Source: Nanobdellota archaeon
GTDB taxonomy: Archaea; Nanobdellota; Nanobdellia; Pacearchaeales; GW2011-AR1
DNA: 64,000 nucleotides
Assembly (NCBI GenBank): GCA_018830525.1
Contig: JAHJSH010000017.1
Span: forward strand, 2,688 to 66,687
Direction: 5' to 3'
Positions 3,564 to 61,533 of this stretch are shown here, piece by piece; the stretch's first letter is position 1; each line of letters opens with the position of its first letter. Position numbers and translations under genes: made by a program. Below the pieces are notes generated by a model. That model saw nothing but the letters and a program-made list of their open reading frames with translations. It ran no database searches and was not told where the DNA came from.

Positions 3564-6500
3564 CTATTTGAAAACTAAATATTTATTGTGATGTTTTTTT
3601 CTATGTTTAATTCTTATAAATAATAATCCTAGGCCTAATAATATTATAACTAAAACAAAGATAGCAAAATATTTTAAATAATTATTTTCTTTATCTTTGA
3701 TAATTTCATCAGTCTTTTCTTCAACCCCATTCTCTTGCTTAATAATTCCTTTTTCAATGGTTTCATTAATTGATTTAATATAAATATTAGCCATTGTTTG
3801 TGTAACATTATTTAATTTAACATAAATATCATAAGTATTATCATTATTCAAATTAATTTTCCATTCATCTCCAATAAAAAGAGTTTTTGTTTGAGGGGTA
3901 GAAGAGATAGTTATTGTTGCAGTTTTATTTGTGTTATTGATATTAATAACTTTCAGTTTATGATTTTCATTATTTAATTTAAAACTAATTTCCCAATTTT
4001 TCCCAAGAGATTTTGTATAGCCTTGTTCAAGATTTAATTGAGTAGGATAATATGTTGGAAGACCTCCGCCTGAAGATGATGCCGGAGTTTCTTCAACAGG
4101 AACAGCAACACTAAAAGAAACATTCATTGTATCATTTCTATTTCCAGAAGTATCATTGCAGTAAAAGTTTGCAGTATAGCTTCCATCAGCAAGTGAAGAT
4201 AAAGTTTTTGTGAATGTTAAATTATCTGTTGTATCCATTGAAACATTTACCACCCCGACATTTGCCGAATACAAGCATGTTCCATTCTCATCTAGAGTAA
4301 CATTTAGAAGAACTGACGAAGTTGTATAGGTCATTGCTGTCGGAGAATTGATGGTGATTTGTGGACTAATTGAATCTATAAAAAAGGTTGCAGAACTTGA
4401 ATTAATGTTACCCATAATATCTTGTGCGTAAGCAGTTAATATATGGGTCCCTTCAGTTAATTCTGTAAAATTACTAGAGTATTTATTTGTTGAAGCATTA
4501 TATAATGCAAGAATTTCATTGTTAGTAAGAGCTTTATTAAAAACCATAATATCATCTACGCTCCCATTAAAGGGATATGTTGGATCACTAATTACCCATT
4601 GTCCATTAATCTGAGTTAAATTAGTACCATCCCTATCCTTCCAATCAGATAACTCTCCATCTAAATATAAATAGATTTTGTCTTTATCATAAACTGCAAC
4701 AATTTGATGCCATATATTTTTAGTCCAATCTGAATTAGATATTGTTGGTCTAATAGCATGTCCTTCATCTGTAGATATTTTAAGAACTAAAGTATCTGAA
4801 GTTTCACTAAAAAACAATCCTTCATCGGTTGTCGTCCTTAATAAACGACTTCCGGTTGTTAAATCAGAAATACTCCAATCTGTCTTTGCCCAAAGTGCAA
4901 AAGTCATATTACTTGTGATATTTAATGTATTTAATCTTGCTTTTTTATATCTCCCATCATACAATGTAGGATTAATATAAGAACTTGCAACTAATAAAGA
5001 ACCATCTTTTAATTCAGTAAATCCTTCAGTTGTCGATATTCCAGTTTTAGTATGCAAAAAATTAAAATTATCATCATAAACTACATATCTATAAGTAGAG
5101 TTATATGTAGCCAGAACCCAGTTTCCATGGTATCTCTCCATAGCTTCAATTCCATAAGTCCCCCTAGGTTTTTCATCCATAAGAGTATGTTTTTTAACAA
5201 AGCCAAAGGACGAATTAAACTCATAAACCTCCAAAGGTATATCTTCAGCATCATAAGGATATCCACCGAGCATATAAAAACTATTATTATAGCAAGCAAC
5301 ACCCCCATTTGCATATTCTATCTCATCTAAATAATGTGACCCTATTAAAGATAAATCTGTTGCATTATAAACCGTAAGATTATTGTGGCTTGATTCGGTA
5401 TCTCCATACAAATAACCATCAGTCCACCCCCCATATATTTTACCATCGGCATAACAAATATCTCCAAGATGCTTGGACACAGAAGTATTAGTTATGATTG
5501 TCCCATTAAAATACGTTTTTACTAAGTTATTAGTATAACTCCAATATATATTCTCATCATCATCAACGGCAACTCCTTGGAGGTGTAGTGATGTTTGGAT
5601 AGGGCTATAAGTATAATCTTCCTCTTGATAAAAGTCTCCACTAAAACCACTAAGTGATTTCCCATAATAAAGATTAATTACGTCTGCCCCAGGTATCTGT
5701 GCACCAATTCCAAACTTCCCACTACTTATATTATAAGTTGCATTAAATGCATTATTATTATTCATCATATCTCTAAAATAGGATTTCCCATAGAAATCAG
5801 TAGAGAGATTATCAAATCTTATCCAGGTTACTAATGAGTTATCAAAATTATTCACAACAAAATATTCATTTGCATCGGATGAAGAAACATTTACAAAGAT
5901 AGATTTTAATGCATAATGATTAAAATTAATAAGGCTATCCCATATAAATGAAATTAAAGGAAACGTTGTATCTTTAATGAAGTAAATTTCTTCAGTATTT
6001 ATATTACTGGCTGTATCATTACAGTAAAAATTTGCAGTATAACTTCCATCATCAATTGAAGAATGTGTGTAATTATAATCTTCAACGGCAGTAGTATTAG
6101 TCATAGTATAATTTGCAATTCCGCCATTTAATGTAAACCAACAAGAATCGGTAGTACTGTTTAAATCAATGGCAGTCATGTTAAAATTATAAAGATTTAA
6201 GTTATATTTTGAGTTATTTACTGGATAATTTATTGTTATTGCTGGACCCACATCATCTATGCTTTGATTAGTATTAAAGATACTGGTAGCATTTGTGATA
6301 TCCGCTGATGAATCTTGAGAATATGCAATAAGACTATGACTTCCATCAATGAATGATTTTTGATAATTTATAGACGTAGCACTATATAATGCATTAATTT
6401 CTTCTTGGTTTAAGCTTCTATTAAAAACAATAACATCATCTATTGAACCATTAAAAAATCTAACAGCCCCATGATAACCAGCACCAATTATTTCTCCAGC

Positions 6501-7271
6501 ATAGGACAGTATATCTTTCTTTGGTACCGTACCTGAGAGAGTATTTACAGTAGGAATTCCCGCAACAGTATTTTTATAACAAGTAATACTTGTTCCATTA
6601 TAAATTGCAATAATATTGGCCCATTGGTTTAAGCTAACTGCTGGACAATTTGCAATAATAATGTCTGTAGAGTTACCAACAATTGCATGAGGGGTCAAGA
6701 CGTTTATATCTACAGAATAAGCTCTTTTGGGAGCACCCCCTCCATGAGACATTCCAAAGATGTCCGTAGAAGCCTCAAGGTTAGAAACCGGATATATCCA
6801 AGTACTTATTGTAAAATTGCTTCCATCGGGAATTGTTTGTTGTGCTGTTGGAAACATTATATAACCCGAAGTACCATCATAAGTTACAGATTTTCCAAAA
6901 TATCCAGTATCATTTAAAACAATATTTCCAGTGAGGGTCCCATTATTTGTTCCCAGATAATCTGTAATGCTATTTACACTTCCGTTATTATCATCCATTC
7001 TCCACCAAGAAACAAGAGAATTATCTAAATTGATTACAGTAGAGTTAGAATTAGAAGAGATTACATTGATATAGGGAAATGAAGAAACGTTTGAACCATC
7101 AATTGGATTTATTATACTAACTGAAGGTAAAGCAAAACCCAAATTTATTAATAATAACAAACCTACAATCAATCCAAAAATCAAAAATCTTTTCCTAATT
7201 AAATGGAAAGAACTTGCTTCGCCCCCCCCCCAACTAAAATTATTTCCAAATAGTATCGACTCTTTTTTCAT
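3564..7271 (-). CDS. Giant surface protein, 1235 aa, with two LamG/concanavalin-like lectin modules, N-terminal signal/TM and C-terminal TM anchor
   Basis: Two LamG_3-type endings (DDVIVFNRSLNQEEINALY; VDDIMVFNKALTNNEILALYN), Asn/Ser/Thr-rich, C-terminal FAIFVLVIILLGLGLLFIRIKHRKK anchor. Confidence 0.75.
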   Translation of the reverse strand: MKKESILFGNNFSWGGGEASSFHLIRKRFLIFGLIVGLLLLINLGFALPSVSIINPIDGSNVSSFPYINVISSNSNSTVINLDNSLVSWWRMDDNNGSVNSITDYLGTNNGTLTGNIVLNDTGYFGKSVTYDGTSGYIMFPTAQQTIPDGSNFTISTWIYPVSNLEASTDIFGMSHGGGAPKRAYSVDINVLTPHAIVGNSTDIIIANCPAVSLNQWANIIAIYNGTSITCYKNTVAGIPTVNTLSGTVPKKDILSYAGEIIGAGYHGAVRFFNGSIDDVIVFNRSLNQEEINALYSATSINYQKSFIDGSHSLIAYSQDSSADITNATSIFNTNQSIDDVGPAITINYPVNNSKYNLNLYNFNMTAIDLNSTTDSCWFTLNGGIANYTMTNTTAVEDYNYTHSSIDDGSYTANFYCNDTASNINTEEIYFIKDTTFPLISFIWDSLINFNHYALKSIFVNVSSSDANEYFVVNNFDNSLVTWIRFDNLSTDFYGKSYFRDMMNNNNAFNATYNISSGKFGIGAQIPGADVINLYYGKSLSGFSGDFYQEEDYTYSPIQTSLHLQGVAVDDDENIYWSYTNNLVKTYFNGTIITNTSVSKHLGDICYADGKIYGGWTDGYLYGDTESSHNNLTVYNATDLSLIGSHYLDEIEYANGGVACYNNSFYMLGGYPYDAEDIPLEVYEFNSSFGFVKKHTLMDEKPRGTYGIEAMERYHGNWVLATYNSTYRYVVYDDNFNFLHTKTGISTTEGFTELKDGSLLVASSYINPTLYDGRYKKARLNTLNITSNMTFALWAKTDWSISDLTTGSRLLRTTTDEGLFFSETSDTLVLKISTDEGHAIRPTISNSDWTKNIWHQIVAVYDKDKIYLYLDGELSDWKDRDGTNLTQINGQWVISDPTYPFNGSVDDIMVFNKALTNNEILALYNASTNKYSSNFTELTEGTHILTAYAQDIMGNINSSSATFFIDSISPQITINSPTAMTYTTSSVLLNVTLDENGTCLYSANVGVVNVSMDTTDNLTFTKTLSSLADGSYTANFYCNDTSGNRNDTMNVSFSVAVPVEETPASSSGGGLPTYYPTQLNLEQGYTKSLGKNWEISFKLNNENHKLKVININNTNKTATITISSTPQTKTLFIGDEWKINLNNDNTYDIYVKLNNVTQTMANIYIKSINETIEKGIIKQENGVEEKTDEIIKDKENNYLKYFAIFVLVIILLGLGLLFIRIKHRKKHHNKYLVFK

Positions 7272-35994: not shown

Positions 35995-37278
35995 TCAAAT
36001 CCAATCTATCTTAAGAAAGTGAGCGGCGCAGGACATGCAAGGGTCGTAAGCTCGAATCATCTTTTCTACTTCGAATGAGATTTCTTCTTTTGTCTTGTCT
36101 TTTTTGATTAGGCTTTCGACATAAGCTGAGATGCTCTTTTCCATATGGAGAATGTTTTGTTGGGTCGGGATGCAGAGGTCCGCGAAAGTCACGATTCCTT
36201 TTTCGTCTAAGTCTAGTCTATAATATAAGGTTCCCCTTGGGGCTTCGATTACTCCGACACCGGTAGATTTTTTTGGTATGATTGTTATAGGCTTTTCAGG
36301 TTTGATTTCGGTGTTTAGAATGTTTATAGAATTATCTGTGATGTTTAACATTTCTATGGCCTGAGCAAGGTTGCTGTCGAAAACATTTGTCGATGGAAAG
36401 ACTTTTAGATATTTTTCGATATATTTTTGAGTATGGGGGTTTAAGTGGTCTTTGTTGATATTCATCCTTGCTAATGCTCCTACGAGATATTCTTTGCTTT
36501 CGAATGCAAATGCGGTCGCATGAGAGTAAGGCAAGACGACCCGATCCAGATGATCTGCAAATTTTTCTTCTGGAATCTCAGTACCCCTTGCAGTTTTCAA
36601 TTTTCCTTCAAGGAAATTATAATCGTTATTTACTAATCCAACATAGTTTGTTTTTCTTTTAAATAAGAAATCTTTTCTTTTATTATAAAGCAAATCGATT
36701 ATTGCGATTATTTTTATCCGGACATCTTTCAATTTCTTTTTAGCCTCGGCGACCTCTTCTTTTGTCGGGAATTTGGTGAATCCTCCAACTATTGCGTTTG
36801 GGGGATGTATAGCTCTTCCGCCGATGATTGTTGAGAGATAGTTCCCAGCTTCTTTTACATCTAGGCCGTAATGAATCCATTTGTGTAGGTCATCCCCGAA
36901 ATCTAATACCGAATCAATTCCGAAAACATCTGGGAGGACAAAGAAGTAAAGATGCATCGCGTGATCTCTTAGATGGCTTGCATTTGCTAAAAGGTTTCTT
37001 AGTCTCATTGTTTGCTCTGTTACTTTGGTTCCAAACGCTTTTTCTATTGCTTCAGTCGAACAGATGACATGGGCCGCGCTACAGGTTCCACAAATTCTTG
37101 ACATTGTCATTGGAACGTTGCTGTATTTTAATCCTACGACTGCTTGAGTAAAGAAACGTTTATTCTCGCTTATTTTTAGATTGCACTCTGCAACTTGTCC
37201 ATCACGAACTTTTAAATCCATGTGGGTATGGCCTTCAATCTTCGAGATGTTCTTTAGGTCTAGGTCGAAGCTATGCAT
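35995..37278 (-). CDS. [NiFe] hydrogenase large subunit (group 3-like, 427 aa)
   Basis: N-terminal RICGTCSAAH (RxCGxCxxxH) and C-terminal DPCMSCAAH (DPCxxCxxH) Ni-binding motifs. Confidence 0.92.
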   Translation of the reverse strand: MHSFDLDLKNISKIEGHTHMDLKVRDGQVAECNLKISENKRFFTQAVVGLKYSNVPMTMSRICGTCSAAHVICSTEAIEKAFGTKVTEQTMRLRNLLANASHLRDHAMHLYFFVLPDVFGIDSVLDFGDDLHKWIHYGLDVKEAGNYLSTIIGGRAIHPPNAIVGGFTKFPTKEEVAEAKKKLKDVRIKIIAIIDLLYNKRKDFLFKRKTNYVGLVNNDYNFLEGKLKTARGTEIPEEKFADHLDRVVLPYSHATAFAFESKEYLVGALARMNINKDHLNPHTQKYIEKYLKVFPSTNVFDSNLAQAIEMLNITDNSINILNTEIKPEKPITIIPKKSTGVGVIEAPRGTLYYRLDLDEKGIVTFADLCIPTQQNILHMEKSISAYVESLIKKDKTKEEISFEVEKMIRAYDPCMSCAAHFLKIDWI

Positions 37279-40608: not shown

Positions 40609-40706
40609 GGAAATCTTTGCATCAGCGATGTACCCCTCGGGCAAAAAGCATTTTTAAGAATATTAAAACGTAATGTTTAAAAAAGGATTCTAACATTTAT
40701 TCTCAT

Positions 40707-40778
40707 GCCTCAATAGTATAATGGTTAGTACACGGCCCTGTCGCGGCCGAGACCCGGGTTCAATCCCCGGTTGGGGCG
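40707..40778 (+). tRNA. tRNA-Asp(GUC), 72 nt
   Basis: Acceptor GCCTCAA/TTGGGGC, anticodon arm CGGCC-CTGTCGC-GGCCG, T arm CCGGG-TTCAATC-CCCGG. Confidence 0.92.
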
Positions 40779-40825
40779 TGAGACAAAAACGAACGGTTTA
40801 AATAAATCGCTTGTTTAGTTATTCT

Positions 40826-41947
40826 ATGAACATTAAGATTGATATTCACAATAGGAACTATGAATCTCGAAGAAAGGTGATTAAGACTTGGGAGATTCCC
40901 GACGTTGAGAAGAAAAAGTTTATTGAATTCTTGGATGAGATGGCTCTCGGCAGAGTAAACAAGGGCAAGAAGATTGGGGAGAATAGGCTATGCAAATATA
41001 TTTCTATGTTAAGAGTTCCTTTTGAATTTTGGAATAAATCTATGACGACACTCACCCTCCAGGATGTTAAGAATTTTGAACAGGATTTTTCATCAGGAAA
41101 AATAAAGACTAAGAATGGTGAAGAATTTGCAGATAGTTCTAAGGTAGATACTCGAAAGGCTCTTAGAATTTATCTTAGATGGCGACTCGGAACTGATAGA
41201 GCAAATAAGTTAGTTGATTGGTTAGACACACGAACCCAAGTCAAAACCCCCGAATTTCTAAGAGAAGAAGAAATTGAATTGCTTTATCGGAGTTGTCGAA
41301 ATGCCAAGGAAAGATTTTTGATTGCAGTATTATTTGATGCGGGTTGTCGTGCGGAAGAATTTCTTAATATCCGATATGAAGACGTATTTACTCCAAAGGA
41401 TTCTTCGAACTTTGTTAAGGTTGCCCTAAAAGAGGAATACAGCAAGACTAAGGGCAGAACTATCTCACTTTATTGGAAACATTCAGTTGAAGCAGTTAGA
41501 GATTATTTAGATGAGAGAAAATTTAGGGGAATAAAATCAACAGAACAAGTATACGAAGGAACTTATGATAAGGCAAGACAATTTATTCGACGGCTTGGAT
41601 TAAAAGTTTTAAACAAGCCTATCCATTTTCACCTATTTAGGCATTCTTCAGCGACATATTATGCTTCTCGATTGAATAGGCAACAACTTTGTATTCGGTA
41701 TGGATGGGCTTTTAGTTCTAATATGCCTGATGTCTATATTTCTCGGGCGGGAATGGAAGACAAGGAACTCGACGAGAGAATGGCAGGGACTAAGATTGAA
41801 AAGATACAAGAAGACTTTTTGAAGAAAGAACAGGAGATGAAAATTGAAATGGGTGAACTCCGAGAAAGATTAGACGGGCAGGAGTCCTTCAATAAACAAA
41901 TTCTTGAGAACATGAAGAAATTTAATCAGACACTTAATAAAAAATGA
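40826..41947 (+). CDS. int: Tyrosine recombinase/integrase
   Basis: FDAGCRAEEF (Arg), HFHLFRHSSATYY (HxxR), MPDVYISRAG (Tyr); 48 nt downstream of tRNA-Asp. ATG at 40826 preferred over TTG at 40811. Confidence 0.87.
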   Translation: MNIKIDIHNRNYESRRKVIKTWEIPDVEKKKFIEFLDEMALGRVNKGKKIGENRLCKYISMLRVPFEFWNKSMTTLTLQDVKNFEQDFSSGKIKTKNGEEFADSSKVDTRKALRIYLRWRLGTDRANKLVDWLDTRTQVKTPEFLREEEIELLYRSCRNAKERFLIAVLFDAGCRAEEFLNIRYEDVFTPKDSSNFVKVALKEEYSKTKGRTISLYWKHSVEAVRDYLDERKFRGIKSTEQVYEGTYDKARQFIRRLGLKVLNKPIHFHLFRHSSATYYASRLNRQQLCIRYGWAFSSNMPDVYISRAGMEDKELDERMAGTKIEKIQEDFLKKEQEMKIEMGELRERLDGQESFNKQILENMKKFNQTLNKK

Positions 41948-49062: not shown

Positions 49063-49261
49063 TAAACTATAAATAGAGGACCTAACTCTTTTAACCATGC
49101 CAAAAATAAGTCCAAAGATTACAGCAGTATTGTCTGCAATAGCATTAATTTATGCGTTGTTTGATAATTTTAATGTATCTGTGGCGATTGCTTCTATTTT
49201 AGTTCTAGTATTGTCTATTGGAATGATTATAGAAGGATAATTCCCTGATTTAAATAAAATC

Positions 49262-49288
49262 GTTCGTTAATGTCACGCACCCGGTTGG
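49262..49288. repeat. 27-bp direct repeat, copy 1 (copy 2 at 49964-49990)
   Basis: GTTCGTTAATGTCACGCACYCGGTTGG; ends in the first 8 nt of the tRNA-Asp core. Confidence 0.85.
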
Positions 49289-49963: not shown

Positions 49964-49995
49964 GTTCGTTAATGTCACGCACTCGGTTGGGGCGT
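49964..49995. repeat. 27-bp direct repeat copy 2 plus full tRNA-Asp 3' core CGGTTGGGGCGT (49984-49995)
   Basis: The 12-nt core is identical to tRNA-Asp positions 40768-40779. Confidence 0.8.
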
Positions 49996-50161: not shown

Positions 50162-51403
50162 ATGGCAACAAAGTATGATGTTTTTGAATTAATATATGAA
50201 AATCGTGCCCCTATGAAACCGATTGAAGTAGTTAAGAAACTAAAAAAAGGTGAAGAAGACTATCATAACATCCATAAATTACTTAGAAGTCTAGTTAAGG
50301 ACAGAATATTAATTAAGGTAAAGGATGGATTTGAAATTAAGATCACTCCAAAAACAGAACTGTTATACAAACTAATCTATTATTGTACTCATAATGGTAT
50401 TAATTACAATCTTTTATTAGACAAAAACATAGCAAACTTTATTTATGAATCTTTAAAAAAAGAAGAATTTCAACAAAAATATATTAAAGTTAATCCAAAA
50501 ACATTTAAAAAATATATAGAAATCTTAGATAAATTTGGATTAATTCTGATAAGTTCTAAAAAACCATTAAAAGCAAGAATATTTGATAATGCCCTAATTA
50601 ATAATCTTTTGATTTATTTTGATTTTAAAACAAAACCTCAGAGAAAATACACAATTAATTACTTAGATGAAATAGAAAAAGAATTAAGTTTATACAAAAG
50701 ATTAAGAAAAAATAATGAAAAAGGATACCAAAAAATAGTTGATGAATTTGAAATACATTTTGTTCAACACAGCCTTTCTTTAGAGGGCAACCCTATAACT
50801 CTTCCAGACACAATAAAAATTTTAAAAGAAGAGATAATCCCAAGAGATTTGAAGAATGAAGATGTTGAAGAAGTTAAAAATTATCAAAATGCTATTCTTA
50901 GAATGCTTAGAGAGGCTCAACAAAGAAAATCTTTAACACAAGAATCAATCTTAGAATATCATAAGTTAGCTATGATTAATAAACCAAAAATTGCAGGAAT
51001 AATAAGAGATTACCCTGTTCGTATAGATAAAAATCCTAATTTTAAAACCGCAAAACCAGAAGAAGTAAAACCCTTACTTAAAGAACTATTAGAAAAATAT
51101 AATGAATTTCTTAAAAAGAAAAAAAGTACAATAAAAGAGATAGTCAATTTTTCTGCATATTTTCATAATCAATTTCAATACATTCATCCGTTTGGAGATG
51201 GAAATAGTAGAACTACAAGATTAATTACATTTCACTTATTGCATTTAAAGGGTATTCCTATGTTAGATATCCCTTTCGGATTATTAGATGAATATCTTAG
51301 CTACACTAAAGGTTCAAAGAAAAGAGATGACAAACAACTTTTCGAAAACTTACAAAAAACAATTTTATTTAATCTTAAAAAGATAAATGAAAGGTTAATT
51401 TAA
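50162..51403 (+). CDS. fic: Fic/DOC-family protein with N-terminal wHTH-like region
   Basis: YIHPFGDGNSRTTRL Fic motif; N-terminus MATKYDVFELIYE parallels MPTRYDVFAKIIE of the ORF at 12852. Confidence 0.85.
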   Translation: MATKYDVFELIYENRAPMKPIEVVKKLKKGEEDYHNIHKLLRSLVKDRILIKVKDGFEIKITPKTELLYKLIYYCTHNGINYNLLLDKNIANFIYESLKKEEFQQKYIKVNPKTFKKYIEILDKFGLILISSKKPLKARIFDNALINNLLIYFDFKTKPQRKYTINYLDEIEKELSLYKRLRKNNEKGYQKIVDEFEIHFVQHSLSLEGNPITLPDTIKILKEEIIPRDLKNEDVEEVKNYQNAILRMLREAQQRKSLTQESILEYHKLAMINKPKIAGIIRDYPVRIDKNPNFKTAKPEEVKPLLKELLEKYNEFLKKKKSTIKEIVNFSAYFHNQFQYIHPFGDGNSRTTRLITFHLLHLKGIPMLDIPFGLLDEYLSYTKGSKKRDDKQLFENLQKTILFNLKKINERLI

Positions 51404-53621: not shown

Positions 53622-53795
53622 TTAGGAGGCTTCTTTCAAAATCTTAGCATCACCAATTATTCTACATCCATATTCCTCTAAATCAACTCCTAACTTTCCA
53701 CACTTGCAAATATCCATTTTATGATGCTCCTTACTATAACTTTTTAATTTTTCATTACAATGAGGACATTGCCATTCAATTGTTTTATTTATCAT
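53622..53795 (-). CDS. Zinc-ribbon small protein (57 aa), candidate partner/antitoxin of the RelA/SpoT-like gene
   Basis: Below track cutoff; MINKTIEWQCPHCNEKLKSYSKEHHKMDICKCGKLGVDLEEYGCRIIGDAKILKEAS; its ATG lies inside the last codons of the upstream gene (11-nt overlap). Confidence 0.5.
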   Translation of the reverse strand: MINKTIEWQCPHCNEKLKSYSKEHHKMDICKCGKLGVDLEEYGCRIIGDAKILKEAS

Positions 53796-54855
53796 TTAAA
53801 ATTTTCTCCAGATATTTTAAAAACTCTCGTGTGTCTACAAAGTAATTAGGATAAGCCTTTTCTAAATCACTAGCTTTATCTGCCCCAACTAAAACAACAT
53901 CATATCCATGGTTATTTTGATTTATTTTCTCTGCCCTAGAATAATCTGAAATTGCATGTTCCTCATCTTCTTTAGGATATCCTGTTAAGTTAAGTTTTTC
54001 TTGCAAAACATCAAGCTCCAAAAGGAAAAATTTAAGGTTCGGTTTTTCTTTAGCAACTTGTCTAAAAACCCTCACAGCCGATGACCACCCCTTCATGATC
54101 TTTATAACTTGCAATTCTTTTTCTTTTTCTTTTATCTGAGCGTATAATTCTTTCAAATCGGTGGGAGTGTTTGGAACAAGGGGAGTTTTTTCCATTATAG
54201 CGAAAGCTGAACTAACTAGTCTAAAGAAATCTTTCCACTCTTTTTCCCCTTCATTAGATTTTATCGCTTGTCTGGTAAACAAATCTACTGTCTCAATTGC
54301 TGTTGCCCAAAGATGTTGAAGTTTAGACCGTATTTGGATTTCTATTTGTAATCCATTATAATCCTTCTTGCCCTCCTTATTGCTTTTATATTTATATACC
54401 AAATGAATACTACGATAACCATCGGATTTTGGATATGAAATATAGTCTTTCTCGCTGACTTTAGTGTGTTTCAGGTCGCTATGAATATAGCCCTCTTTGT
54501 AGAGTTTTTTTGCTAAAAGAACATTAGACACAACAGCTCTACATCCTGCAATATCTTGCATTCGTGAAAGCTTCATTGAAGATTTCTCTCCAGAATACAC
54601 TCTTTGTAATTTTTTTAAAATAGATGGGAGCCTTTTTAGCCTTTGAACGCTCACAGCATTATTATCAATTTTTTCCGAAACTAATTTTAATCTTTTTTTA
54701 AAAATGTGCATAGGGTATCTATGTATAGCTCTCCAATTATCTAAGATACGAAGTGCCTCATCTTTTTCATCTAAAGAACTATTCTTGTCAATTAGAATAT
54801 TTCCTGCCCAATTCACTCTTTTCTTGCTATATCCTTCAGATTTTACCCAAACCAT
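53785..54855 (-). CDS. RelA/SpoT-domain nucleotide pyrophosphokinase (small alarmone synthetase / toxSAS-like)
   Basis: RLKRLPSILKKL, MQDIAGCRAVV, YISYPKSDGYRSIHLVYKY, IEIQIRSKLQHLWATAIE: the synthetase-fold motif series. Confidence 0.8.
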   Translation of the reverse strand: MVWVKSEGYSKKRVNWAGNILIDKNSSLDEKDEALRILDNWRAIHRYPMHIFKKRLKLVSEKIDNNAVSVQRLKRLPSILKKLQRVYSGEKSSMKLSRMQDIAGCRAVVSNVLLAKKLYKEGYIHSDLKHTKVSEKDYISYPKSDGYRSIHLVYKYKSNKEGKKDYNGLQIEIQIRSKLQHLWATAIETVDLFTRQAIKSNEGEKEWKDFFRLVSSAFAIMEKTPLVPNTPTDLKELYAQIKEKEKELQVIKIMKGWSSAVRVFRQVAKEKPNLKFFLLELDVLQEKLNLTGYPKEDEEHAISDYSRAEKINQNNHGYDVVLVGADKASDLEKAYPNYFVDTREFLKYLEKILNDK

Positions 54856-54888: not shown

Positions 54889-54986
54889 TGTTTTGGGCGG
54901 TTTTTAATTGATAAAAATATAGTTTTGGGCGGTAATTTTTATGCATAAATCGGTATTTATAGAATAAAAATATAGTTTTGGGCGGT
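54889..54986. promoter_or_regulatory. Iterons upstream of the RelA/SpoT-like gene: TTTTGGGCGGT x3, two within a perfect 23-mer
   Basis: ATAAAAATATAGTTTTGGGCGGT at 54911-54933 and 54964-54986; shorter copy at 54889-54901 abutting a TTTAAATAG TATA-like box. Confidence 0.55.
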
Positions 54987-55270: not shown

Positions 55271-55283
55271 AAAGCTTATATAA
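55271..55283 (+). promoter_or_regulatory. BRE/TATA-like AAAGCTTATATAA
   Basis: 34 nt upstream of the ATG at 55317; a similar AAGCTTTTTATAT precedes tRNA-His (around 14320). Confidence 0.45.
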
Positions 55284-55316
55284 CCCGTTTTTCTTCAAAA
55301 ATATGAGGAAACTAAA

Positions 55317-55418
55317 ATGTCAAAATGTACAGCAGTTCTAGATGCGAAGAAAGTCGAAAGCATCACATTGGAAGATTCTAGTGAATCTTTGAATGCCGAT
55401 ACTGAATCTTTAGATTAA
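55317..55418 (+). CDS. Candidate precursor peptide (33 aa)
   Basis: GAGG 8 nt upstream of the ATG; MSKCTAVLDAKKVESITLEDSSESLNADTESLD; stop lies 13 nt before the radical SAM gene. Confidence 0.4.
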   Translation: MSKCTAVLDAKKVESITLEDSSESLNADTESLD

Positions 55419-55431
55419 GTCTTTCTTTTGA

Positions 55432-56718
55432 ATGGTAAAGAAATTAGATTGCCCTAGTGTACCTCATTTGGTACACATCGAGACCACCTATAGGTGTAAT
55501 CAAAAATGTATTTTCTGTTATAACCCTAATCGAGATTGTTCTATTGATTATGAAAAACTTGATCGGATCGTAGATAGTGTGTCAAAATCAAATATCCCTC
55601 ACGTTTACTTAATAGGAGGGGAGCCTTCAATTTTGAAAATTGAGAAACTGAATGAGTATATAGATAAGCTTTCGAAAACTTCTTCGGTGACAATAGTAAC
55701 AAATGGTATAAGATATCTTGATGGTTTGTCTAAAAATCTTGCATGCATCGGAATTCCAATTCATGGGGATAAGAAAACTCATGAGTATCTAACAAATAAT
55801 CCGGGAGGATATGATACTACAATAACAAATGCTAAGAAATATATCAAGGAAGGTTTTGATGTCAGATGTATTCCCGTCCTTATGTCAATAAATTATAATC
55901 AAATGTATGATGTAATTAAACTTGCAGCGGAAATGGGTATGGAAAGTGTTTTCGTAGACCGTTTTGAATCTGGAGGAATTGGGAGTAAGCTGACAAATGA
56001 ATTGATGCCTTCAAATGAACAATTTTTTAAGGCACTTGATCAAATGATTAAAGCAAGGAAAGATTTTGCAATCCCTCTAGGTTTTGGAACTGCAATTCCT
56101 TACTGCTTAGACAAAAGAATGATTGAAGAAGACATTAAGGCTAATTGTGGTGCAGGAGTTACATTTGGTGCAATTAATCCACAAGGAGATTTTAGAATCT
56201 GTAACCAATCTCTAAAGATATATGGTAATGTTCTTGAGGAACCAGTGGAAAAGATATGGAATAAAAAGGAACTTGACGAATTCAGGGATTTAAGTTGGGT
56301 GACTGAACCTTGTATTAATTGCGATTTGTTACATGAATGTGTTTGTGGATGTAAGGTTGATACAAGTTGTTCTGGAGAGTTCTGTGTCGATTGCTCTGTG
56401 AGGGGATGCAAAGAGCCAGTCAATAAAGTTGCAATTAAAAAAGAAGTTCCGAAGATTGGGGTTCCTGAAAAAATGAGGAGATTTAAACGAAATAAGTATC
56501 TGCGTTTAAATAGTTCACACAAGGAAATTTATCTGGTTACAAGATATCAAACAATAAAAGTTGATAAATTTCTTGAAGAAGTTATTGAGTATATTCTGAA
56601 AAATGAATATATTCTAGAAAAAGAGCTTATTAATAATTTTAATAATATGGCTGATGAAAAGACCATAAGGATTATTCTTTCCAAACTTTGTTTAGTTGGA
56701 GCATTAGATCAAATATAA
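55432..56718 (+). CDS. Radical SAM enzyme with SPASM domain and C-terminal PqqD/RRE-like tail
   Basis: CNQKCIFC (CX3CX2C), LIGGEPS, CGAGVTFGAINPQGDFRIC (CX12GX4C), CINCDLLHECVCGC (CX2CX5CX3C). Confidence 0.85.
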   Translation: MVKKLDCPSVPHLVHIETTYRCNQKCIFCYNPNRDCSIDYEKLDRIVDSVSKSNIPHVYLIGGEPSILKIEKLNEYIDKLSKTSSVTIVTNGIRYLDGLSKNLACIGIPIHGDKKTHEYLTNNPGGYDTTITNAKKYIKEGFDVRCIPVLMSINYNQMYDVIKLAAEMGMESVFVDRFESGGIGSKLTNELMPSNEQFFKALDQMIKARKDFAIPLGFGTAIPYCLDKRMIEEDIKANCGAGVTFGAINPQGDFRICNQSLKIYGNVLEEPVEKIWNKKELDEFRDLSWVTEPCINCDLLHECVCGCKVDTSCSGEFCVDCSVRGCKEPVNKVAIKKEVPKIGVPEKMRRFKRNKYLRLNSSHKEIYLVTRYQTIKVDKFLEEVIEYILKNEYILEKELINNFNNMADEKTIRIILSKLCLVGALDQI

Positions 56719-56720
56719 AA

Positions 56721-58145
56721 ATGGAAATCACAAACTGCGACTGGGAAATCACTACTGGCTGTAATCTCTCATGTAAACATTGTATAATCAACTGTAAACC
56801 TGAAATAGAACTTTCTACAACACAATGTTTTTATGCAATTGACAAGCTTAAGGAATTTGGTTGCAAGCAGATTAATTTTACGGGAGGGGAAGCTCTTTTT
56901 AGAAATGATTTTCCAGAAATTTTAAAATACTCTTTTGAAAAGGGTATCGTAAATACTGTTTTCACAAATGGTATACTTCTTAAAAAAGAAATTTTAGATA
57001 AAATAAAAAAGTATGTAACTTATTTTGCAATCAGTCTGGAAGGTCCTCAAGAAGAAAATGATTCAATAAGGGGAAGTGGCACCTTCACTAAAACATTGGT
57101 CGCAATAAGATTGTTAAAAATGGAAAATATCCCTTTCGGAATACATATAACCTTAACTTCAAAAAATTATTCTTCATTAAATAAAACATTAAATCTTATC
57201 AAAGAATTGGAACCGTTTAATATTAGCATTAATCAATTAGTCTTAAAAGGGAGAGCCTTAGAAAATAAAGAGGAACTTGATTTGGATATTAATGTTGATA
57301 AGATTCTTTCAATTGTACGAGAGATTTTTCCCGAAGAGGAATTTTCTAAGGATAAGGGATGTAAGGCAAAACCTTCTTCGATAGTTTTAACGAGTGAAGG
57401 AAATATTTATTCATGCACAGAAATTAGGCAGAATTGTCCTGCAAGAAATATTGGGAATATCTTAGACGATACCCCTAAGAAAGAATCTGAAATAGTTTAC
57501 AACTCATGCAAATGTCCATATTATTCCTACAATTCAAGGAGGATAAGCATTAATTTTTTAACAGGGGATGGGTGTGCTGCATTAGAAGAAGATAATTGGG
57601 GGGATCAAGAACTCTTCCCAGGCATTGGAGAGATTTGTAAAAATTGTACAATTTGTTGTAAAACTTATGGTTGGTTAACTTCCTCCGAATCAAGGATGTT
57701 TGTTGAGCAAAAAATTCCTACCGTTAAATTTAATGGATGTGTTTCTTGTATTGATTCCTTCGATAAAGATTCAACTGGAGAAAGGATTTTAGAAGAAATT
57801 CCTATTTGTAGATTCTATAAAAATGAAAGATGTCTAATTCAAGATAAAAAGCCATTAGATTGCCAATTGTTTCCAATAAAGATAAAAGTCAGAAATGGGA
57901 ATGTTTTTTTAGGCCTAAGTAGGGATTGCAAATATATTTCATCCCTAAGTGAAAATGAAAAAGAAGCCCTATATCTTAGAGTGATCAGATATCTGAAACA
58001 TAACTTGGATGGAAAGTTAAAAGATTATTTAGATCTGAGAGTTGAGGTAGATAAAATTTCAATGCCAAAAGATTTTGCTATGAAAGAAATAGTCTCTCTA
58101 TCCCAGAAAAAGGGTGGATGGATTATTGAAGAAACTCTAGTCTAA
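56721..58145 (+). CDS. Radical SAM enzyme (twitch-like) fused to a CxxCxxCC (YkgJ/UPF0153-type) metal-binding domain
   Basis: CNLSCKHC, FTGGEAL, CKAKPSSIVLTSEGNIYSC, then CKNCTICCKTYGW...CRFY...C..Q..KP..C..FP. Confidence 0.8.
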   Translation: MEITNCDWEITTGCNLSCKHCIINCKPEIELSTTQCFYAIDKLKEFGCKQINFTGGEALFRNDFPEILKYSFEKGIVNTVFTNGILLKKEILDKIKKYVTYFAISLEGPQEENDSIRGSGTFTKTLVAIRLLKMENIPFGIHITLTSKNYSSLNKTLNLIKELEPFNISINQLVLKGRALENKEELDLDINVDKILSIVREIFPEEEFSKDKGCKAKPSSIVLTSEGNIYSCTEIRQNCPARNIGNILDDTPKKESEIVYNSCKCPYYSYNSRRISINFLTGDGCAALEEDNWGDQELFPGIGEICKNCTICCKTYGWLTSSESRMFVEQKIPTVKFNGCVSCIDSFDKDSTGERILEEIPICRFYKNERCLIQDKKPLDCQLFPIKIKVRNGNVFLGLSRDCKYISSLSENEKEALYLRVIRYLKHNLDGKLKDYLDLRVEVDKISMPKDFAMKEIVSLSQKKGGWIIEETLV

Positions 58146-59069
58146 TTTTTCCAATAGTTTATCTTTAGTTTCTTGAAAATGATCTATCATTTTAACATCA
58201 GATTTTGTTTGGGGTGAAATAATTTTAATTCCATTTATCCCATCAACAAATGCTCTTGTACAGTCATAGACATCATTATGATAGCCCCCCTCTAGAACTG
58301 CAAAAGTAGGAACTCCAAGTTCTCGAAAAAATCTTCCAATATATTGATATCCCCCCAGACTAAAGTTTAGGTTTCCTAAGGGATCTTTTGAATAAGCATC
58401 AAAACCGGCAGATATACCAATCTTCGTAGGGTTAAAATTCCAGATAAGTTTCGCGGCAACATCTAGAGAATCTTTTAGTATATCGTCCCCAGCACCCATA
58501 GGTAATGGGAGGTTTGCATTGCTCCCCCGTCCTCCCGCTTCTCCAATTTCCGAAGTATCCCCCGTATAAGGCCATTTTCCTTCTTCGTGTGTTGAAAAAT
58601 AAAATACTTCAGGATCTTTGTAAAATATGTCTTGAGTGCCGTCACCATGATGGACATCAAAGTCATAAATAAAAACTCTCTCCCCATTTTCCTGAAGGTA
58701 CTTCGCTAAAATTGCCATATTATTAAACAGGCATAAACCTTTAGCCTCATTTCTTTTCGCATGATGTCCGGGAGGATGAATAAGTGCAAAGTTATTTTCT
58801 ATGGCTGCTTCAAGCCCTAAGTTTAAGGAACTCACACAAGAAATATATGATTCGGGAGATAGCCTTGCTTCTGCAAGAGTATAATGATTTTTGCATGCAC
58901 CTTTAATTTTATCGATATGCTCTGGGCTATGAACTAAACTCATAAGTTTTTCTGCAGTATTCACCTCCGAACAAGACCTATTATGGGAAAATCCTGAAAG
59001 ACGATAAGGACCTTCAACCTTACAATTAGGATTATGGCCCATTACAGATTTATTAAACAGTATCTTCAT
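58137..59069 (-). CDS. Histone deacetylase-family (arginase fold) deacetylase / acetylpolyamine amidohydrolase-like
   Basis: HPPGHHA, DFDVHHGDGTQDIFY, SAGFDAY..DPLG, EGGY. Confidence 0.85.
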   Translation of the reverse strand: MKILFNKSVMGHNPNCKVEGPYRLSGFSHNRSCSEVNTAEKLMSLVHSPEHIDKIKGACKNHYTLAEARLSPESYISCVSSLNLGLEAAIENNFALIHPPGHHAKRNEAKGLCLFNNMAILAKYLQENGERVFIYDFDVHHGDGTQDIFYKDPEVFYFSTHEEGKWPYTGDTSEIGEAGGRGSNANLPLPMGAGDDILKDSLDVAAKLIWNFNPTKIGISAGFDAYSKDPLGNLNFSLGGYQYIGRFFRELGVPTFAVLEGGYHNDVYDCTRAFVDGINGIKIISPQTKSDVKMIDHFQETKDKLLEKLD

Positions 59070-59728
59070 TTTATTTTTTTTAAGTCAAGATATAATGTTC
59101 GAGTTCTAGGATTATCAGGGTTTTTAGTTATAATATCTCCTACGAATCCATTTCTTTTAAATATACTTGCAGTTTTCTCTAATTCAGATTCACTTCTAGG
59201 ATAAAATTGAAAAATTAGTGGCGCATTAGTCCCAAGAAGACCATAAGTCCCTTCAGCTACCTGCCGAATATCTCCCTCTTCCTTAAGCCACTGAAGAGCC
59301 GAAACAGAAACAATCCCGTCAAACTGTTGGCCTGCAAAAATTTCTCCGACATTTCTCATATCCCCCACATAAGCCTTAATCCCTCTTTCGTTTGCTTTCT
59401 CAACCATTTGAGGAGTTACATCAAGACCAATAACTTCAAAGCCCATATTTTGATAAACTGCTGAAGTGTATCCAGGACCACAACCCATATCTAAAATCTT
59501 AGAGCCTTTCCCTAAATTTAACATCTCAACAACATTATTAGCAATTCTCTCTTGAGCCTTCCTCATTCCCCCGGAACGAGCAGATTTCTCAACTTCCATA
59601 GGGGTATAAAAGAATAAAGGATTGCCATAGGTTTCCTCCGGCCGATTGTTCTTAACATTCCAGCCTTCATCAAATCGCTTATGACTATGTTTATTCTCAT
59701 ATGCATTTCTACGCCTTGTTTGTCCCAT
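59066..59728 (-). CDS. Class I SAM methyltransferase, Bud23/WBSCR22-like
   Basis: N-terminal RPEETYGNPLFFYTPMEVEKSARS..MRKAQERIANNVVEMLNL, then ILDMGCGPGYTS, parallels the Bud23 N-terminus and motif I. Confidence 0.7.
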   Translation of the reverse strand: MGQTRRRNAYENKHSHKRFDEGWNVKNNRPEETYGNPLFFYTPMEVEKSARSGGMRKAQERIANNVVEMLNLGKGSKILDMGCGPGYTSAVYQNMGFEVIGLDVTPQMVEKANERGIKAYVGDMRNVGEIFAGQQFDGIVSVSALQWLKEEGDIRQVAEGTYGLLGTNAPLIFQFYPRSESELEKTASIFKRNGFVGDIITKNPDNPRTRTLYLDLKKIK

Positions 59729-59804: not shown

Positions 59805-60227
59805 ATGGAAAACCTAAAAGAAAAATGTATTGATCTCGCGAGATCTTTGCCGGATTGGTTTACTGATGTTGCGATCGAAAACATGAAGATTGACTTCGAG
59901 TTAAATGAAATTATATCTGAAGGAGATTTGGATGGATTTTTAGTTTATAATTCAGACAATGGGACCATTAAGATAATCTGGACTGCAGTAAAGAAAGAAG
60001 CCCAGCGTGGCGGGATTGGGACTCGTTTGATTAATAAGTTAATTGCTAAGGCAAAAGAGCTTGGAGTCAAGGAAATTATAGTTGAAACACTTTCTCCAAA
60101 TCAGGAATATGTTCCATATAATCTAACGCGAGCGTTCTATGAAAAGAATGGCTTCAAGGTTAAGAAGATAATCCCTCCCGAGAAAGAAGGCTGGGATGAA
60201 ATGGTCCTTTATGGGCTGGAATTGTAA
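59805..60227 (+). CDS. GNAT-family N-acetyltransferase
   Basis: VKKEAQRGGIGTRLINKLI (Q/RxxGxG/A acetyl-CoA motif), FYEKNGF. Confidence 0.82.
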   Translation: MENLKEKCIDLARSLPDWFTDVAIENMKIDFELNEIISEGDLDGFLVYNSDNGTIKIIWTAVKKEAQRGGIGTRLINKLIAKAKELGVKEIIVETLSPNQEYVPYNLTRAFYEKNGFKVKKIIPPEKEGWDEMVLYGLEL

Positions 60228-60255: not shown

Positions 60256-60274
60256 CCCCGGTCGGGGCGTGAGA
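60256..60274. repeat. tRNA-Asp 3' end copy CCCCGGTCGGGGCGTGAGA
   Basis: 18/19 match to 40765-40783 (CCCCGGTTGGGGCGTGAGA); followed by an integrase gene at the same spacing class as at the tRNA. Confidence 0.8.
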
Positions 60275-60345
60275 AAATAGTTTTACGTACTGAAAAGATA
60301 TAATCGTGGTATATAAACCAAAAAAGATTATATCTTTCAAGTACA

Positions 60346-61533
60346 ATGGATATACATAACTACCAAAAAAGATTTGAAAGAACCTTAGAAAGAATTAACG
60401 AAGCTGATACTTGCCAAGAAAACAAGGATTCTATTTTTAGATTTAAAGATTATTTATTGAGTGAAAATCTCAGCATCGCTAAAATTGACAGATACCTCTA
60501 CGACCTGATGAGGTATTGTGATATGCTTTCTAAGCTCATTGAAGCCGCAGATAAGCAAGATCTCCGAAAAGTCGTAGGAATTATTAACCAAAAAATTTGG
60601 ACAGAAGAAACAAAGAAATGTTTTAAGGTAATGTTAAAAAGATATTACAGATTTGTGGCAGGAATTGAAGAAAAAGGAGTTTATCCTGAAATTATAAATT
60701 GGGTAAATACAAATATTGCCGAGAGTAAAAGAAAACTTCCCGAAGAATTATTAAATGAATCTGAAATAAAAAATATTATTCAAAAGTGTACTTGCATTCG
60801 GGATAGAGCTTTAATCTCGGTGTTGGCAGAATCAGGTTGTAGGATTGGAGAAATTGGAACTCTAAAAATCAAGAACATGAGTTTTGAACAATATGGGACA
60901 AGACTTACTGTTAATGGGAAAACAGGAATGCGGAAAATTCTAGTTATTAATTCAACCCCTTATTTGCAAGAATGGATTAATCATCATCCAGATAACGAAA
61001 ATCCTGAAGCTTATATGTGGGTAAGGGCAGATGGAAACACCTTATGCTATGCAAGGATTTCCCATATCTTAAAAAGGTCTGCCCAAAAAGCAGGAATCAA
61101 AAAACGAGTTTACCCTCATCTATTAAGGCACAGCCGGGCAACACATTTAGCGTCAATCATGAGAGAAGCTTCCATGAAACAATATTTCGGATGGACTCAA
61201 AGTTCAAGAATGGCAGGAGTTTATATTCACATGTCAGGGAAAGATACCGACAACGCAATTTTACAAGCAAGTGGAATTAAGATTGAAGAAAAGGAAATCG
61301 CAAGAGATATGCAACCTAAAATTTGCATAAGATGTAGCTCGACAAATCCTGTGACAAATGTTGTCTGTGGAACTTGTGGTCTACCATTAGATAAAAAACA
61401 AGCAGAAGAAATTATTACCAATCAAACTAAGAAGGAGAATATTGATAGTTTTATGAATAAGATTGTAGAAAATCCTGAATTTCTAAAAGTGTTAGTTAAA
61501 AAAATGGCGGAGGTGAATAAGATACAGAAGTGA
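60346..61533 (+). CDS. int: Tyrosine recombinase/integrase with C-terminal zinc ribbon
   Basis: ESGCRIGEI (Arg), YPHLLRHSRATHL (HxxR), MAGVYIHMSG (Tyr), CIRCSSTNPVTNVVCGTCG. Confidence 0.87.
   Translation: MDIHNYQKRFERTLERINEADTCQENKDSIFRFKDYLLSENLSIAKIDRYLYDLMRYCDMLSKLIEAADKQDLRKVVGIINQKIWTEETKKCFKVMLKRYYRFVAGIEEKGVYPEIINWVNTNIAESKRKLPEELLNESEIKNIIQKCTCIRDRALISVLAESGCRIGEIGTLKIKNMSFEQYGTRLTVNGKTGMRKILVINSTPYLQEWINHHPDNENPEAYMWVRADGNTLCYARISHILKRSAQKAGIKKRVYPHLLRHSRATHLASIMREASMKQYFGWTQSSRMAGVYIHMSGKDTDNAILQASGIKIEEKEIARDMQPKICIRCSSTNPVTNVVCGTCGLPLDKKQAEEIITNQTKKENIDSFMNKIVENPEFLKVLVKKMAEVNKIQK

Follow-up and report, generated by a model that had tools for sequence, protein, structure and literature searches.

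We analyzed a 64,000-nucleotide (nt) stretch of DNA from a Nanobdellota archaeon (GCA_018830525.1, contig JAHJSH010000017.1, forward strand, positions 2,688 to 66,687), hereafter the window, and found that it carries a cassette of three co-directional genes. These are an open reading frame (ORF) of 33 codons, a radical S-adenosylmethionine (SAM) enzyme with a SPASM domain (rSAM-1), and a second radical SAM enzyme (rSAM-2) fused to a cysteine-cluster domain. The cassette is probably the DPANN version of a conserved system for the modification of a ribosomally made peptide, dependent on a RiPP recognition element (RRE; RiPP, ribosomally synthesized and posttranslationally modified peptide). A preliminary description of the same DNA had reported a TATA/BRE-like element, a GAGG motif, the small ORF, and a 13-nt gap in front of rSAM-1, along with a set of cysteine and GGE motifs in both enzymes. 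All of these are present, and the first four lie exactly where it had placed them. The cassette comprises the following features:

55271–55283, plus strand: putative TATA/BRE-like promoter element (BRE, transcription factor B recognition element), AAAGCTTATATAA, read in the sequence ~34 to 46 nt 5′ of the ATG of the small ORF
55306–55309, plus strand: Shine-Dalgarno (SD)–like GAGG, 7 nt 5′ of the same ATG
55317–55418, plus strand: precursor-like peptide gene, 33 amino acids, MSKCTAVLDAKKVESITLEDSSESLNADTESLD, with homologous ORFs in related loci
55432–56718, plus strand: rSAM-1, 428 amino acids, radical SAM/SPASM enzyme with a predicted C-terminal RRE domain (Pfam, homologs)
56146–56406, plus strand: SPASM auxiliary-cluster region of rSAM-1 (CX12GX4C ... 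CX2CX5CX3C plus further cysteines)
56479–56715, plus strand: predicted RRE winged-helix domain at the C terminus of rSAM-1, with an invariant TRYQ motif (AlphaFold2 model and Foldseek)
56721–58145, plus strand: rSAM-2 fused to a CxxCxxCC-type domain, 474 amino acids (Pfam Radical_SAM)
57360–57575, plus strand: twitch-like auxiliary-cluster region of rSAM-2 (four invariant cysteines)
57591–58142, plus strand: CxxCxxCC/YkgJ-like Cys-cluster domain (CKNCTICC motif at 57636–57659)

The TAA stop of the small ORF is separated by 13 nt from the ATG of rSAM-1 at 55432. For rSAM-2, the ATG at 56721, 3 nt past the stop of rSAM-1, is the likelier start; the alternative TTG at 56688 would give a protein of 485 amino acids. 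Related loci show an A/T-rich TATA-like sequence at a comparable distance from the small ORF, and of 58 loci, 46 have an SD-like motif in front of the homologous ORF.

The peptide gene and its conservation

Using neighborhood look-ups, 61 species-representative genomes, and metagenome contigs, we collected 82 loci with an rSAM-1 homolog. With relaxed patterns, which allowed GTG or TTG starts, the peptide ORF was found in 66 of them, and 11 of the 16 loci without it are interrupted by contig ends. Thus, the small ORF is kept beside homologous radical SAM genes, which the preliminary description had proposed as a test of its own reading. A GTG start is apparent in four loci (L036, L038, L039, and L040) and a TTG start in one (L047), and therefore a search for "MSKC" misses these genes.

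An alignment of 22 peptides showed that M1, S2, K3, C4, and D9 are invariant, that positions 7, 8, 13, 16, and 18 are hydrophobic, and that position 6 holds a small residue, with proline in a few homologs. The conserved part corresponds to the N-terminal ~19 residues, including the MSKC.A.LD..K segment. It is followed by a tail that varies in length (21 to 56 amino acids for the whole peptide), sequence, and charge and is mostly lysine rich, with an acidic tail solely in the window peptide and in that of L019. The peptide had previously been characterized as acidic, Ser/Thr rich, and having a single cysteine; the single cysteine is confirmed, while the acidic, Ser/Thr-rich tail is not a conserved trait.

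The pattern of substitutions identified the small ORF as protein coding. Across 50 distinct 57-nt sequences, the summed entropy at codon positions 1, 2, and 3 was 13.5, 8.5, and 27.4, respectively, and codons 1 to 9 showed 5153 synonymous versus 1031 nonsynonymous codon differences. For Ser2, the homologs use both TCN and AGC codons. Because the small ORF recurs beside rSAM-1 homologs and has this clear coding signature, its presence is beyond chance, and it is a real, coding gene under selection at the amino acid level. The peptide matched no Pfam or NCBIfam family, and in the protein database, its family consists of 78 unnamed or "hypothetical" entries of 30 to 53 amino acids.

The position of the peptide gene varies, yet it always lies inside the cassette. 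In the archaeal clade, it is found upstream of rSAM-1, and the same arrangement, at a distance of 70 to 170 nt, is present in every archaeal locus that has an intact upstream region and lacks the gene for RNHCP, a zinc-ribbon protein described below. In most loci from Candidate Phyla Radiation (CPR) bacteria, the peptide gene lies just 3′ of the Cys-cluster gene, often overlapping it, while in the aminotransferase subtype, it is divergent and upstream. The peptide can also be read in frame with the preceding CxxCxxCC-type ORF, with no intervening stop (L017:6291-6878, L022:7168-7848, and L044:6278-7066), and two proteins, P0199 and P0200, are called as Cys-cluster–peptide fusions. The fusion in L017 keeps only 12 residues of the peptide.

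Three further ideas about the peptide gene were rejected. The peptide is not a remnant or mimic of RNHCP, as the hidden Markov model (HMM) of RNHCP gave 2 to 3 bits with inconsistent placement. Nor does it replace RNHCP in a mutually exclusive manner, as a wider search found the peptide in loci with RNHCP too. Last, an oligo-T terminator 3′ of the gene was dismissed, as runs of T6 to T8 occur in several relatives and the window has just T4.

Instead of encoding the substrate, the small ORF might act in regulation as an upstream ORF, serve in translational coupling, or encode a small structural subunit, with the enzymes acting on another protein, such as RNHCP, or on something other than a peptide. 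In line with such a role, rSAM-1 lacks an SD sequence and begins 13 nt past the small ORF, RNHCP is highly conserved, directly 5′ of rSAM-1 in most loci and sometimes fused to it, and AlphaFold2 did not dock the peptide with confidence. However, most CPR peptide genes are either the last in the operon or encoded on the other strand and thus are not leader ORFs of rSAM-1 there, selection acts on the amino acid sequence, with Ser2 drawn from two codon families, and the window and its whole clade have kept the RRE-bearing enzyme and the peptide without RNHCP. As an RRE fold also implies a peptide ligand, we consider a role other than that of a substrate very unlikely.

The enzymes and accessory proteins

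rSAM-1 carries the CNQKCIFC (CX3CX2C) and LIGGEPS motifs, followed by CX12GX4C (C239..G252..C257) and CX2CX5CX3C (C294..C307). It matched Pfam Radical_SAM (PF04055) with 50.7 bits (cut-off, 29.5) and SPASM (PF13186) with 31.9 bits (cut-off, 21.5), the latter over residues 239 to 298. Full-length homologs with 50 to 75% identity are present in DPANN and CPR genomes. In the family alignment, C239, C257, C294, C297, C303, and C307 are invariant, as are the CX3CX2C and GGE motifs of both radical SAM enzymes. The closest solved relatives of rSAM-1 by sequence are PqqE (2e-14), followed by SkfB, SuiB, CteB, and anSME.

No NCBIfam equivalog came near its cut-off for either enzyme. The best matches were generic SPASM/twitch maturase models (60 to 110 versus 265 to 650 bits), and the models for PqqE, MftC, and NirJ/Ahb were among the top ones. 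For rSAM-1, the pyrroloquinoline quinone (PQQ), mycofactocin, and heme d1/Ahb equivalogs gave at best 59 to 71 bits (cut-offs, 265 to 500), and among the sactipeptide and ranthipeptide models, AlbA gave 32.6 (cut-off, 850) and SCIFF 32.3 (cut-off, 425).

The C-terminal tail of rSAM-1 had been predicted in the preliminary description to be a PqqD/RRE domain. At the level of sequence, the PqqD assignment failed: The isolated tail had no match to Pfam PqqD (PF05402) even at E ≤ 10, and its profile retrieved only the BlaI winged helix (E = 0.43) from the sequences of the Protein Data Bank (PDB). The RRE fold, in turn, was recovered by structure prediction. AlphaFold2 modeled residues 338 to 428 from a 49-sequence alignment with a predicted local distance difference test (pLDDT) score of 93.5, as β strands followed by three helices (42 to 53, 59 to 66, and 72 to 84). 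In a Foldseek comparison with the PDB, 20 of the 25 best matches to this model were RRE-containing RiPP proteins (TruD, McbB, PqqD, LynD, TigE, ThcOx, TbtB, lasso-peptide B1, NisB, PbtF, MccB, and CteB), with query-normalized TM-scores of 0.52 to 0.72 and, for the 25 best, Foldseek probabilities of 0.8 to 1.0. One of them, TigE, is a radical SAM–SPASM (RS-SPASM) enzyme producing cyclopropylglycine (PMC10878394). The TRYQ motif of the tail is invariant, and a search of 1.84 billion representative proteins with the tail profile returned only 38 matches. As modeled, the tail is a compact, family-specific RRE fused at the C terminus of the enzyme. Together, the full SPASM motifs, the peptide- or protein-modifying solved relatives, and the RRE-fold tail make rSAM-1 look like a peptide maturase.

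rSAM-2 contains the CNLSCKHC, FTGGEAL, CX12GX4C, and CKNCTICC motifs and matched Pfam Radical_SAM with 83 bits (cut-off, 29.5). Apart from CX3CX2C, all 54 of the 54 homologs share four invariant cysteines (C215, C233, C266, and C286). Because there are exactly four extra invariant cysteines and no Pfam SPASM match, rSAM-2 appears to be twitch-like, with one auxiliary cluster, rather than a SPASM enzyme. Among solved proteins, it is closest to SkfB (4e-15), an enzyme of the sactipeptide type. The PQQ, mycofactocin, and heme d1/Ahb equivalogs gave 91 to 109 bits (cut-offs, 265 to 650), StsB gave 86 (cut-off, 625), and PapB gave 51.8 (cut-off, 340) with the rSAM-2 homolog of locus L001.

The Cys-cluster domain of the window, taken by itself, falls below the threshold of PF03692 (E = 0.78; 10.9 bits versus a cut-off of 23). 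Of the 27 members of its family, 21 match PF03692 at E ≤ 0.01 (best, 9.4e-8), and all seven cysteines that are invariant in the family are present in the window domain. Judged by these matches, the domain is assigned at the family level to the YkgJ/CxxCxxCC-type metal-binding domains. A structural model of the family, built on the Cys-cluster–peptide fusion P0199, had no neighbor in the PDB. The fusion of a radical SAM enzyme to a CxxCxxCC domain, which the preliminary description had singled out, proved not to be special. In the nearest relatives of the window (64 to 75% identity), rSAM-2 and the Cys-cluster protein are encoded by separate, overlapping genes, and the fusion occurs in at least 16 loci besides the window. 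Thus, the fusion in the window is one of several independent events. For the CxxC domain, RNHCP, and the peptide, no NCBIfam model exists.

Across the loci, we identified RNHCP as a fifth component of the cassette, beyond those in the preliminary description. RNHCP (PF12647) is a zinc-ribbon protein of ~105 amino acids encoded directly 5′ of rSAM-1 in most CPR loci (for example, L003:5676-5987 and L004:5598-5978, plus about 50 others). Its sequence features are two CxxC pairs, a block that is invariant (GYT[ND]HC..CL.SKHVD.NPGDR), and one further cysteine. RNHCP is absent from the whole window and from the clade to which the window belongs. HMM mapping revealed the recurring order RNHCP, rSAM-1, rSAM-2, sometimes a pyridoxal phosphate (PLP)–dependent aminotransferase, and a Cys-cluster protein of ~187 amino acids. 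In 11 loci whose downstream gene is intact, rSAM-2 is lacking, and the Cys-cluster gene lies directly 3′ of rSAM-1. Natural fusions further tie the components together: RNHCP to rSAM-1 (P0081, L017, and L018), rSAM-1 to rSAM-2 (P0079, L012, L013, L015, and L076), and rSAM-1 to the Cys-cluster protein (P0088 and L032).

rSAM-1 homologs occur in the Woese-, Pace-, and Nanoarchaeia (DPANN) and are more numerous in Patescibacteria (CPR). The distribution of the cassette is sporadic, with 61 distinct loci among 185,579 species genomes. In keeping with the RiPP-like gene set recognized by the preliminary description, the precursor-like peptide gene is co-located with rSAM-1 in 66 of the 82 loci. It had also been considered that the radical SAM pair might be tied to a cofactor or lipid pathway; instead, the pair travels with the peptide, the CxxCxxCC-type protein, and RNHCP. 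No transporter, peptidase, or immunity gene recurs among the neighbors of the cassette. We found no description of the cassette in the searchable literature, which leaves out most subscription-journal papers.

Some loci contain additional genes. An Amidohydro_2 hydrolase adjoins the cassette in 18 loci, and the PLP aminotransferase lies inside it in 9. Many CPR loci carry further neighbors: A divergent third radical SAM/SPASM-like enzyme of ~400 amino acids is encoded in 13 loci, a B12-binding radical SAM enzyme in 8, and another methyltransferase in 11. Such extra genes lie on the minus strand upstream in L024, L027, L031, L054, L080, and others, and they may represent lineage-specific tailoring enzymes. 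A role of the cassette in anti-phage defense was rejected, as PADLOC returned only generic viperin-model matches to the radical SAM cores and none for RNHCP.

Genomic setting

Two features outside the cassette bear on its mobility:

59066–59728, minus strand: class I SAM methyltransferase, with homologs beside the cassette in the archaeal clade
60256–60277, plus strand: att-like copy of the 3′ end of tRNA-Asp, matching 40765–40786 at 20 of 22 positions

The cassette had been described as mobile looking and bounded by copies of tRNA-Asp at ~55173 and 60256. The tRNA-Asp gene itself is located at 40706–40779 and is followed by an integrase gene (40811–41947). The copy at 60256 is likewise followed by an integrase gene (60346–61533; Pfam Phage_integrase match), and no integrase lies between the ~55173 and 60256 copies. 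A second copy of the tRNA-Asp 3′ end at 49981–50002 matches at 17 of 22 positions, and a partial copy of the sequence around tRNA-Asp is found at 49254–49288. The putative copy at ~55173 shares just a 12-nt core (CGGTTGGGGCGT). The right-hand copy is a good one that goes with the adjacent integrase and marks the edge of an integrated element, although not clearly that of the cassette.

The same stretch contains a gene for a Fic-domain protein (50162–51403, plus strand; PADLOC SoFic/PDC-S04, down to 7e-29) and one for a RelA/SpoT-like protein (53785–54855, minus strand; PADLOC candidate defense family PDC-S33, 5.7e-117). Together with the integrases and the tRNA-Asp copies, these genes suggest that the stretch is an integration hot spot with defense-type cargo. 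A 57–amino acid zinc-ribbon ORF (53622–53795, minus strand), just 3′ of the RelA/SpoT-like gene, gave a weak match to DUF7695 (E = 1.3e-4, below gathering). The intergenic region upstream of the cassette harbors two 36-nt direct repeats (54898–54933 and 54951–54986), which are 86% identical and 53 nt apart.

In relatives, the setting of the cassette is more ordinary. A homolog of the methyltransferase (36 to 55% identity) adjoins the cassette in 14 distinct loci of the archaeal clade, being downstream and convergent in 13 and upstream in L019, and is by position a constant neighbor in this clade. Scans of 13 archaeal relatives revealed no tRNA gene next to the cassette in any of them. Because the methyltransferase stays adjacent and no tRNA gene accompanies the cassette in these relatives, the cassette itself appears unlike cargo, and its mobility is weakly supported.

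These observations bear on the view, implied by the preliminary description, that the product is a secreted antimicrobial or signaling RiPP encoded by the cargo of an integrative element at tRNA-Asp. The gene set does obey the grammar of RiPP clusters, the region has the att-like copies, two integrases, and defense-type genes, and the patchy distribution, which crosses from bacteria to archaea, suggests horizontal transfer. Against it stand the lack of any recurring transporter, peptidase, or immunity gene and the near invariance of the presumed core, since antimicrobial cores are usually hypervariable. In addition, the left att copy is a 12-nt match only, and the relatives without an adjacent tRNA gene, most of which share the methyltransferase, suggest an ordinary chromosomal setting. 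A secreted RiPP is thus highly improbable.

The remaining neighbors differ in how far they follow the cassette. A histone-deacetylase-family (zinc amidohydrolase) gene (58137–59069, minus strand) is convergent with rSAM-2, and the two genes share 9 nt at the 3′ end of rSAM-2; a homolog was found near the cassette in one relative only (L074). Homologs of a RimI-like GNAT gene (59805–60227) lie near the cassette in L074, L022, L011, L025, and L033. Elsewhere, the window encodes a 1235–amino acid Laminin_G_3/Ig-like surface protein (3564–7271, minus strand), a [NiFe]-hydrogenase large-subunit-like ORF (35995–37278, minus strand), and ordinary housekeeping proteins such as HisRS, GAPDH, and PGK.

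Proposed maturation and comparison with known systems

Taken together, the data are best explained by RRE-dependent modification of the peptide. The RRE of rSAM-1 would hold the peptide, probably via the conserved hydrophobic stretch at residues ~12 to 19, and the bound peptide would thereby have its invariant N-terminal segment (S2-K3-C4...D9) placed at the active site. rSAM-1 would then perform a radical-mediated modification centered on Cys4. PapB and QhpD systems have Cys-Asp thioether motifs, and by analogy, a Cys4-Asp9 thioether cross-link is the leading candidate. rSAM-2, which is missing in some lineages, may add a second modification, and the Cys-cluster domain could supply a metal or Fe-S function or handle the peptide. 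Because neither a protease nor an exporter or immunity gene accompanies the cassette and the probably modified segment is near identical across two domains of life, the product is probably an intracellular modified microprotein or cofactor-like molecule rather than a secreted toxin.

Several points weigh against this proposal. The peptide was assigned as the substrate on the basis of its gene linkage to the enzymes and of the RRE fold, and a Cys4-Asp9 thioether is proposed by analogy rather than from a result. The layout of the peptide, with a conserved extreme N terminus, a variable C-terminal tail, and a single cysteine, is atypical for RiPPs. Five of the 82 loci have complete flanks and no recognizable peptide, and no leader peptidase or transporter was linked to the cassette among the recurring neighbors that we checked. 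Last, in an AlphaFold2 model of the CxxC-peptide fusion P0199 (14-sequence alignment), the Cys-cluster domain was moderately well modeled, and the peptide had a pLDDT of 33 to 60 and was undocked.

The main rival to this proposal is that the peptide gives rise to a small molecule or redox cofactor similar to PQQ or mycofactocin, in which N-terminal residues are modified and a hydrolase frees the product for use by other enzymes. In line with this, PqqE is the best solved relative of rSAM-1, with PqqE, MftC, and NirJ/Ahb among the top NCBIfam matches, and the peptide core is as invariant as those of PqqA or MftA, across both bacteria and archaea. Exporter and immunity genes are not linked, metal or Fe-S accessory proteins belong to the system, and the Amidohydro_2 hydrolase (18 loci) and the aminotransferase (9 loci) accompany the cassette in some lineages. 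However, the HMM scores are far under the cut-offs (PqqE, 69 versus 381 bits; mycofactocin, 59 versus 265 bits), and the hydrolase and aminotransferase are missing in the window and in most loci. Moreover, no cofactor-dependent partner enzyme is consistently linked, and the family is as sporadic as noted above. A released cofactor is thus unlikely.

The genomes of CPR bacteria and DPANN archaea are very small, and their biosynthetic capacity is low. The retention of a four- to five-gene cassette, 50 to 75% identical across domains, in such tiny genomes suggests that it is likely important to the lineages that keep it. With a short, near-invariant peptide and enzymes of normal size, the system lends itself to direct tests. 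If our proposal is correct, it would give RNHCP (PF12647) and the YkgJ/CxxCxxCC-like proteins their first functional context and add a layout with a C-terminal RRE and an N-terminal core to the rules of RiPP genome mining. Because the peptide gene is often overlooked or annotated as "hypothetical," mining pipelines probably miss or misclassify these loci. A more far-reaching version, which is conceivable yet on the whole doubtful, is that the cassette represents the first peptide-maturation system common to CPR and DPANN. It would have an inverted layout (N-terminal core, C-terminal recognition segment, and RRE at the C terminus of the enzyme), RNHCP and a YkgJ-like domain as metal-binding helpers, an intracellular microprotein or peptide-derived cofactor as the product, and a chemistry new for radical SAM enzymes.

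The cassette shares the logic of RRE-dependent radical SAM peptide maturation and fails every specific family test that we ran. Similarly to the PqqA/PqqD/PqqE system, it combines a short, highly conserved peptide with a radical SAM–SPASM enzyme and an RRE of the PqqD type for presenting this peptide; among solved structures, PqqE is closest to rSAM-1 by sequence (2e-14), and PqqD ranks with the best structural matches to the tail. In contrast, rSAM-1 scored 69 bits with TIGR02109 (PqqE; cut-off, 381), its RRE is fused at the C terminus of the enzyme, the peptide has no Glu/Tyr pair, and PqqB, PqqC, and PqqF are absent, while rSAM-2, the CxxCxxCC protein, and RNHCP are additional components. 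Mycofactocin biosynthesis (MftA/MftB/MftC) likewise relies on a conserved small peptide, an RRE, and a SPASM enzyme and gives an intracellular product. Both window enzymes have the MftC model among their best matches, but their scores of 59 and 91 bits fall short of its cut-off (265). In MftA, the modification is at the C-terminal Val-Tyr, whereas the conserved segment of our peptide is N-terminal, and equivalents of MftD, MftE, and MftF are missing.

PapB-freyrasin, QhpD-QhpC, and CteB-SCIFF are also systems of SPASM radical SAM enzymes dependent on an RRE, and CteB turned up in both the sequence and the fold searches with rSAM-1. The cysteine of the cassette peptide and the aspartate five residues on resemble Cys-Asp thioether motifs. 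Nevertheless, the peptide has a single cysteine as opposed to a cysteine-rich core, the PapB, SCIFF, and sactipeptide models scored far under their cut-offs, and solved relatives are known with an N-terminal RRE. SkfB and rSAM-2 have in common a radical SAM core followed by a single twitch-like auxiliary-cluster region; unlike SkfB, rSAM-2 lacks an RRE, has a CxxCxxCC domain at its C terminus in the window, and scored 56 bits with TIGR04403 (cut-off, 300). As in the YkgJ/CxxCxxCC family (PF03692, UPF0153; putative zinc/iron chelators), the Cys-cluster protein has CxxCx2-4C near its N terminus followed by PxC...C...RPxxC..YP...DC, although the window's own domain is under the threshold (E = 0.78). 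The searchable literature yielded no report that connects this family with radical SAM peptide maturases. Last, in contrast to PQQ, mycofactocin, sactipeptide, and ranthipeptide systems, the cassette is mainly confined to CPR bacteria and DPANN archaea.

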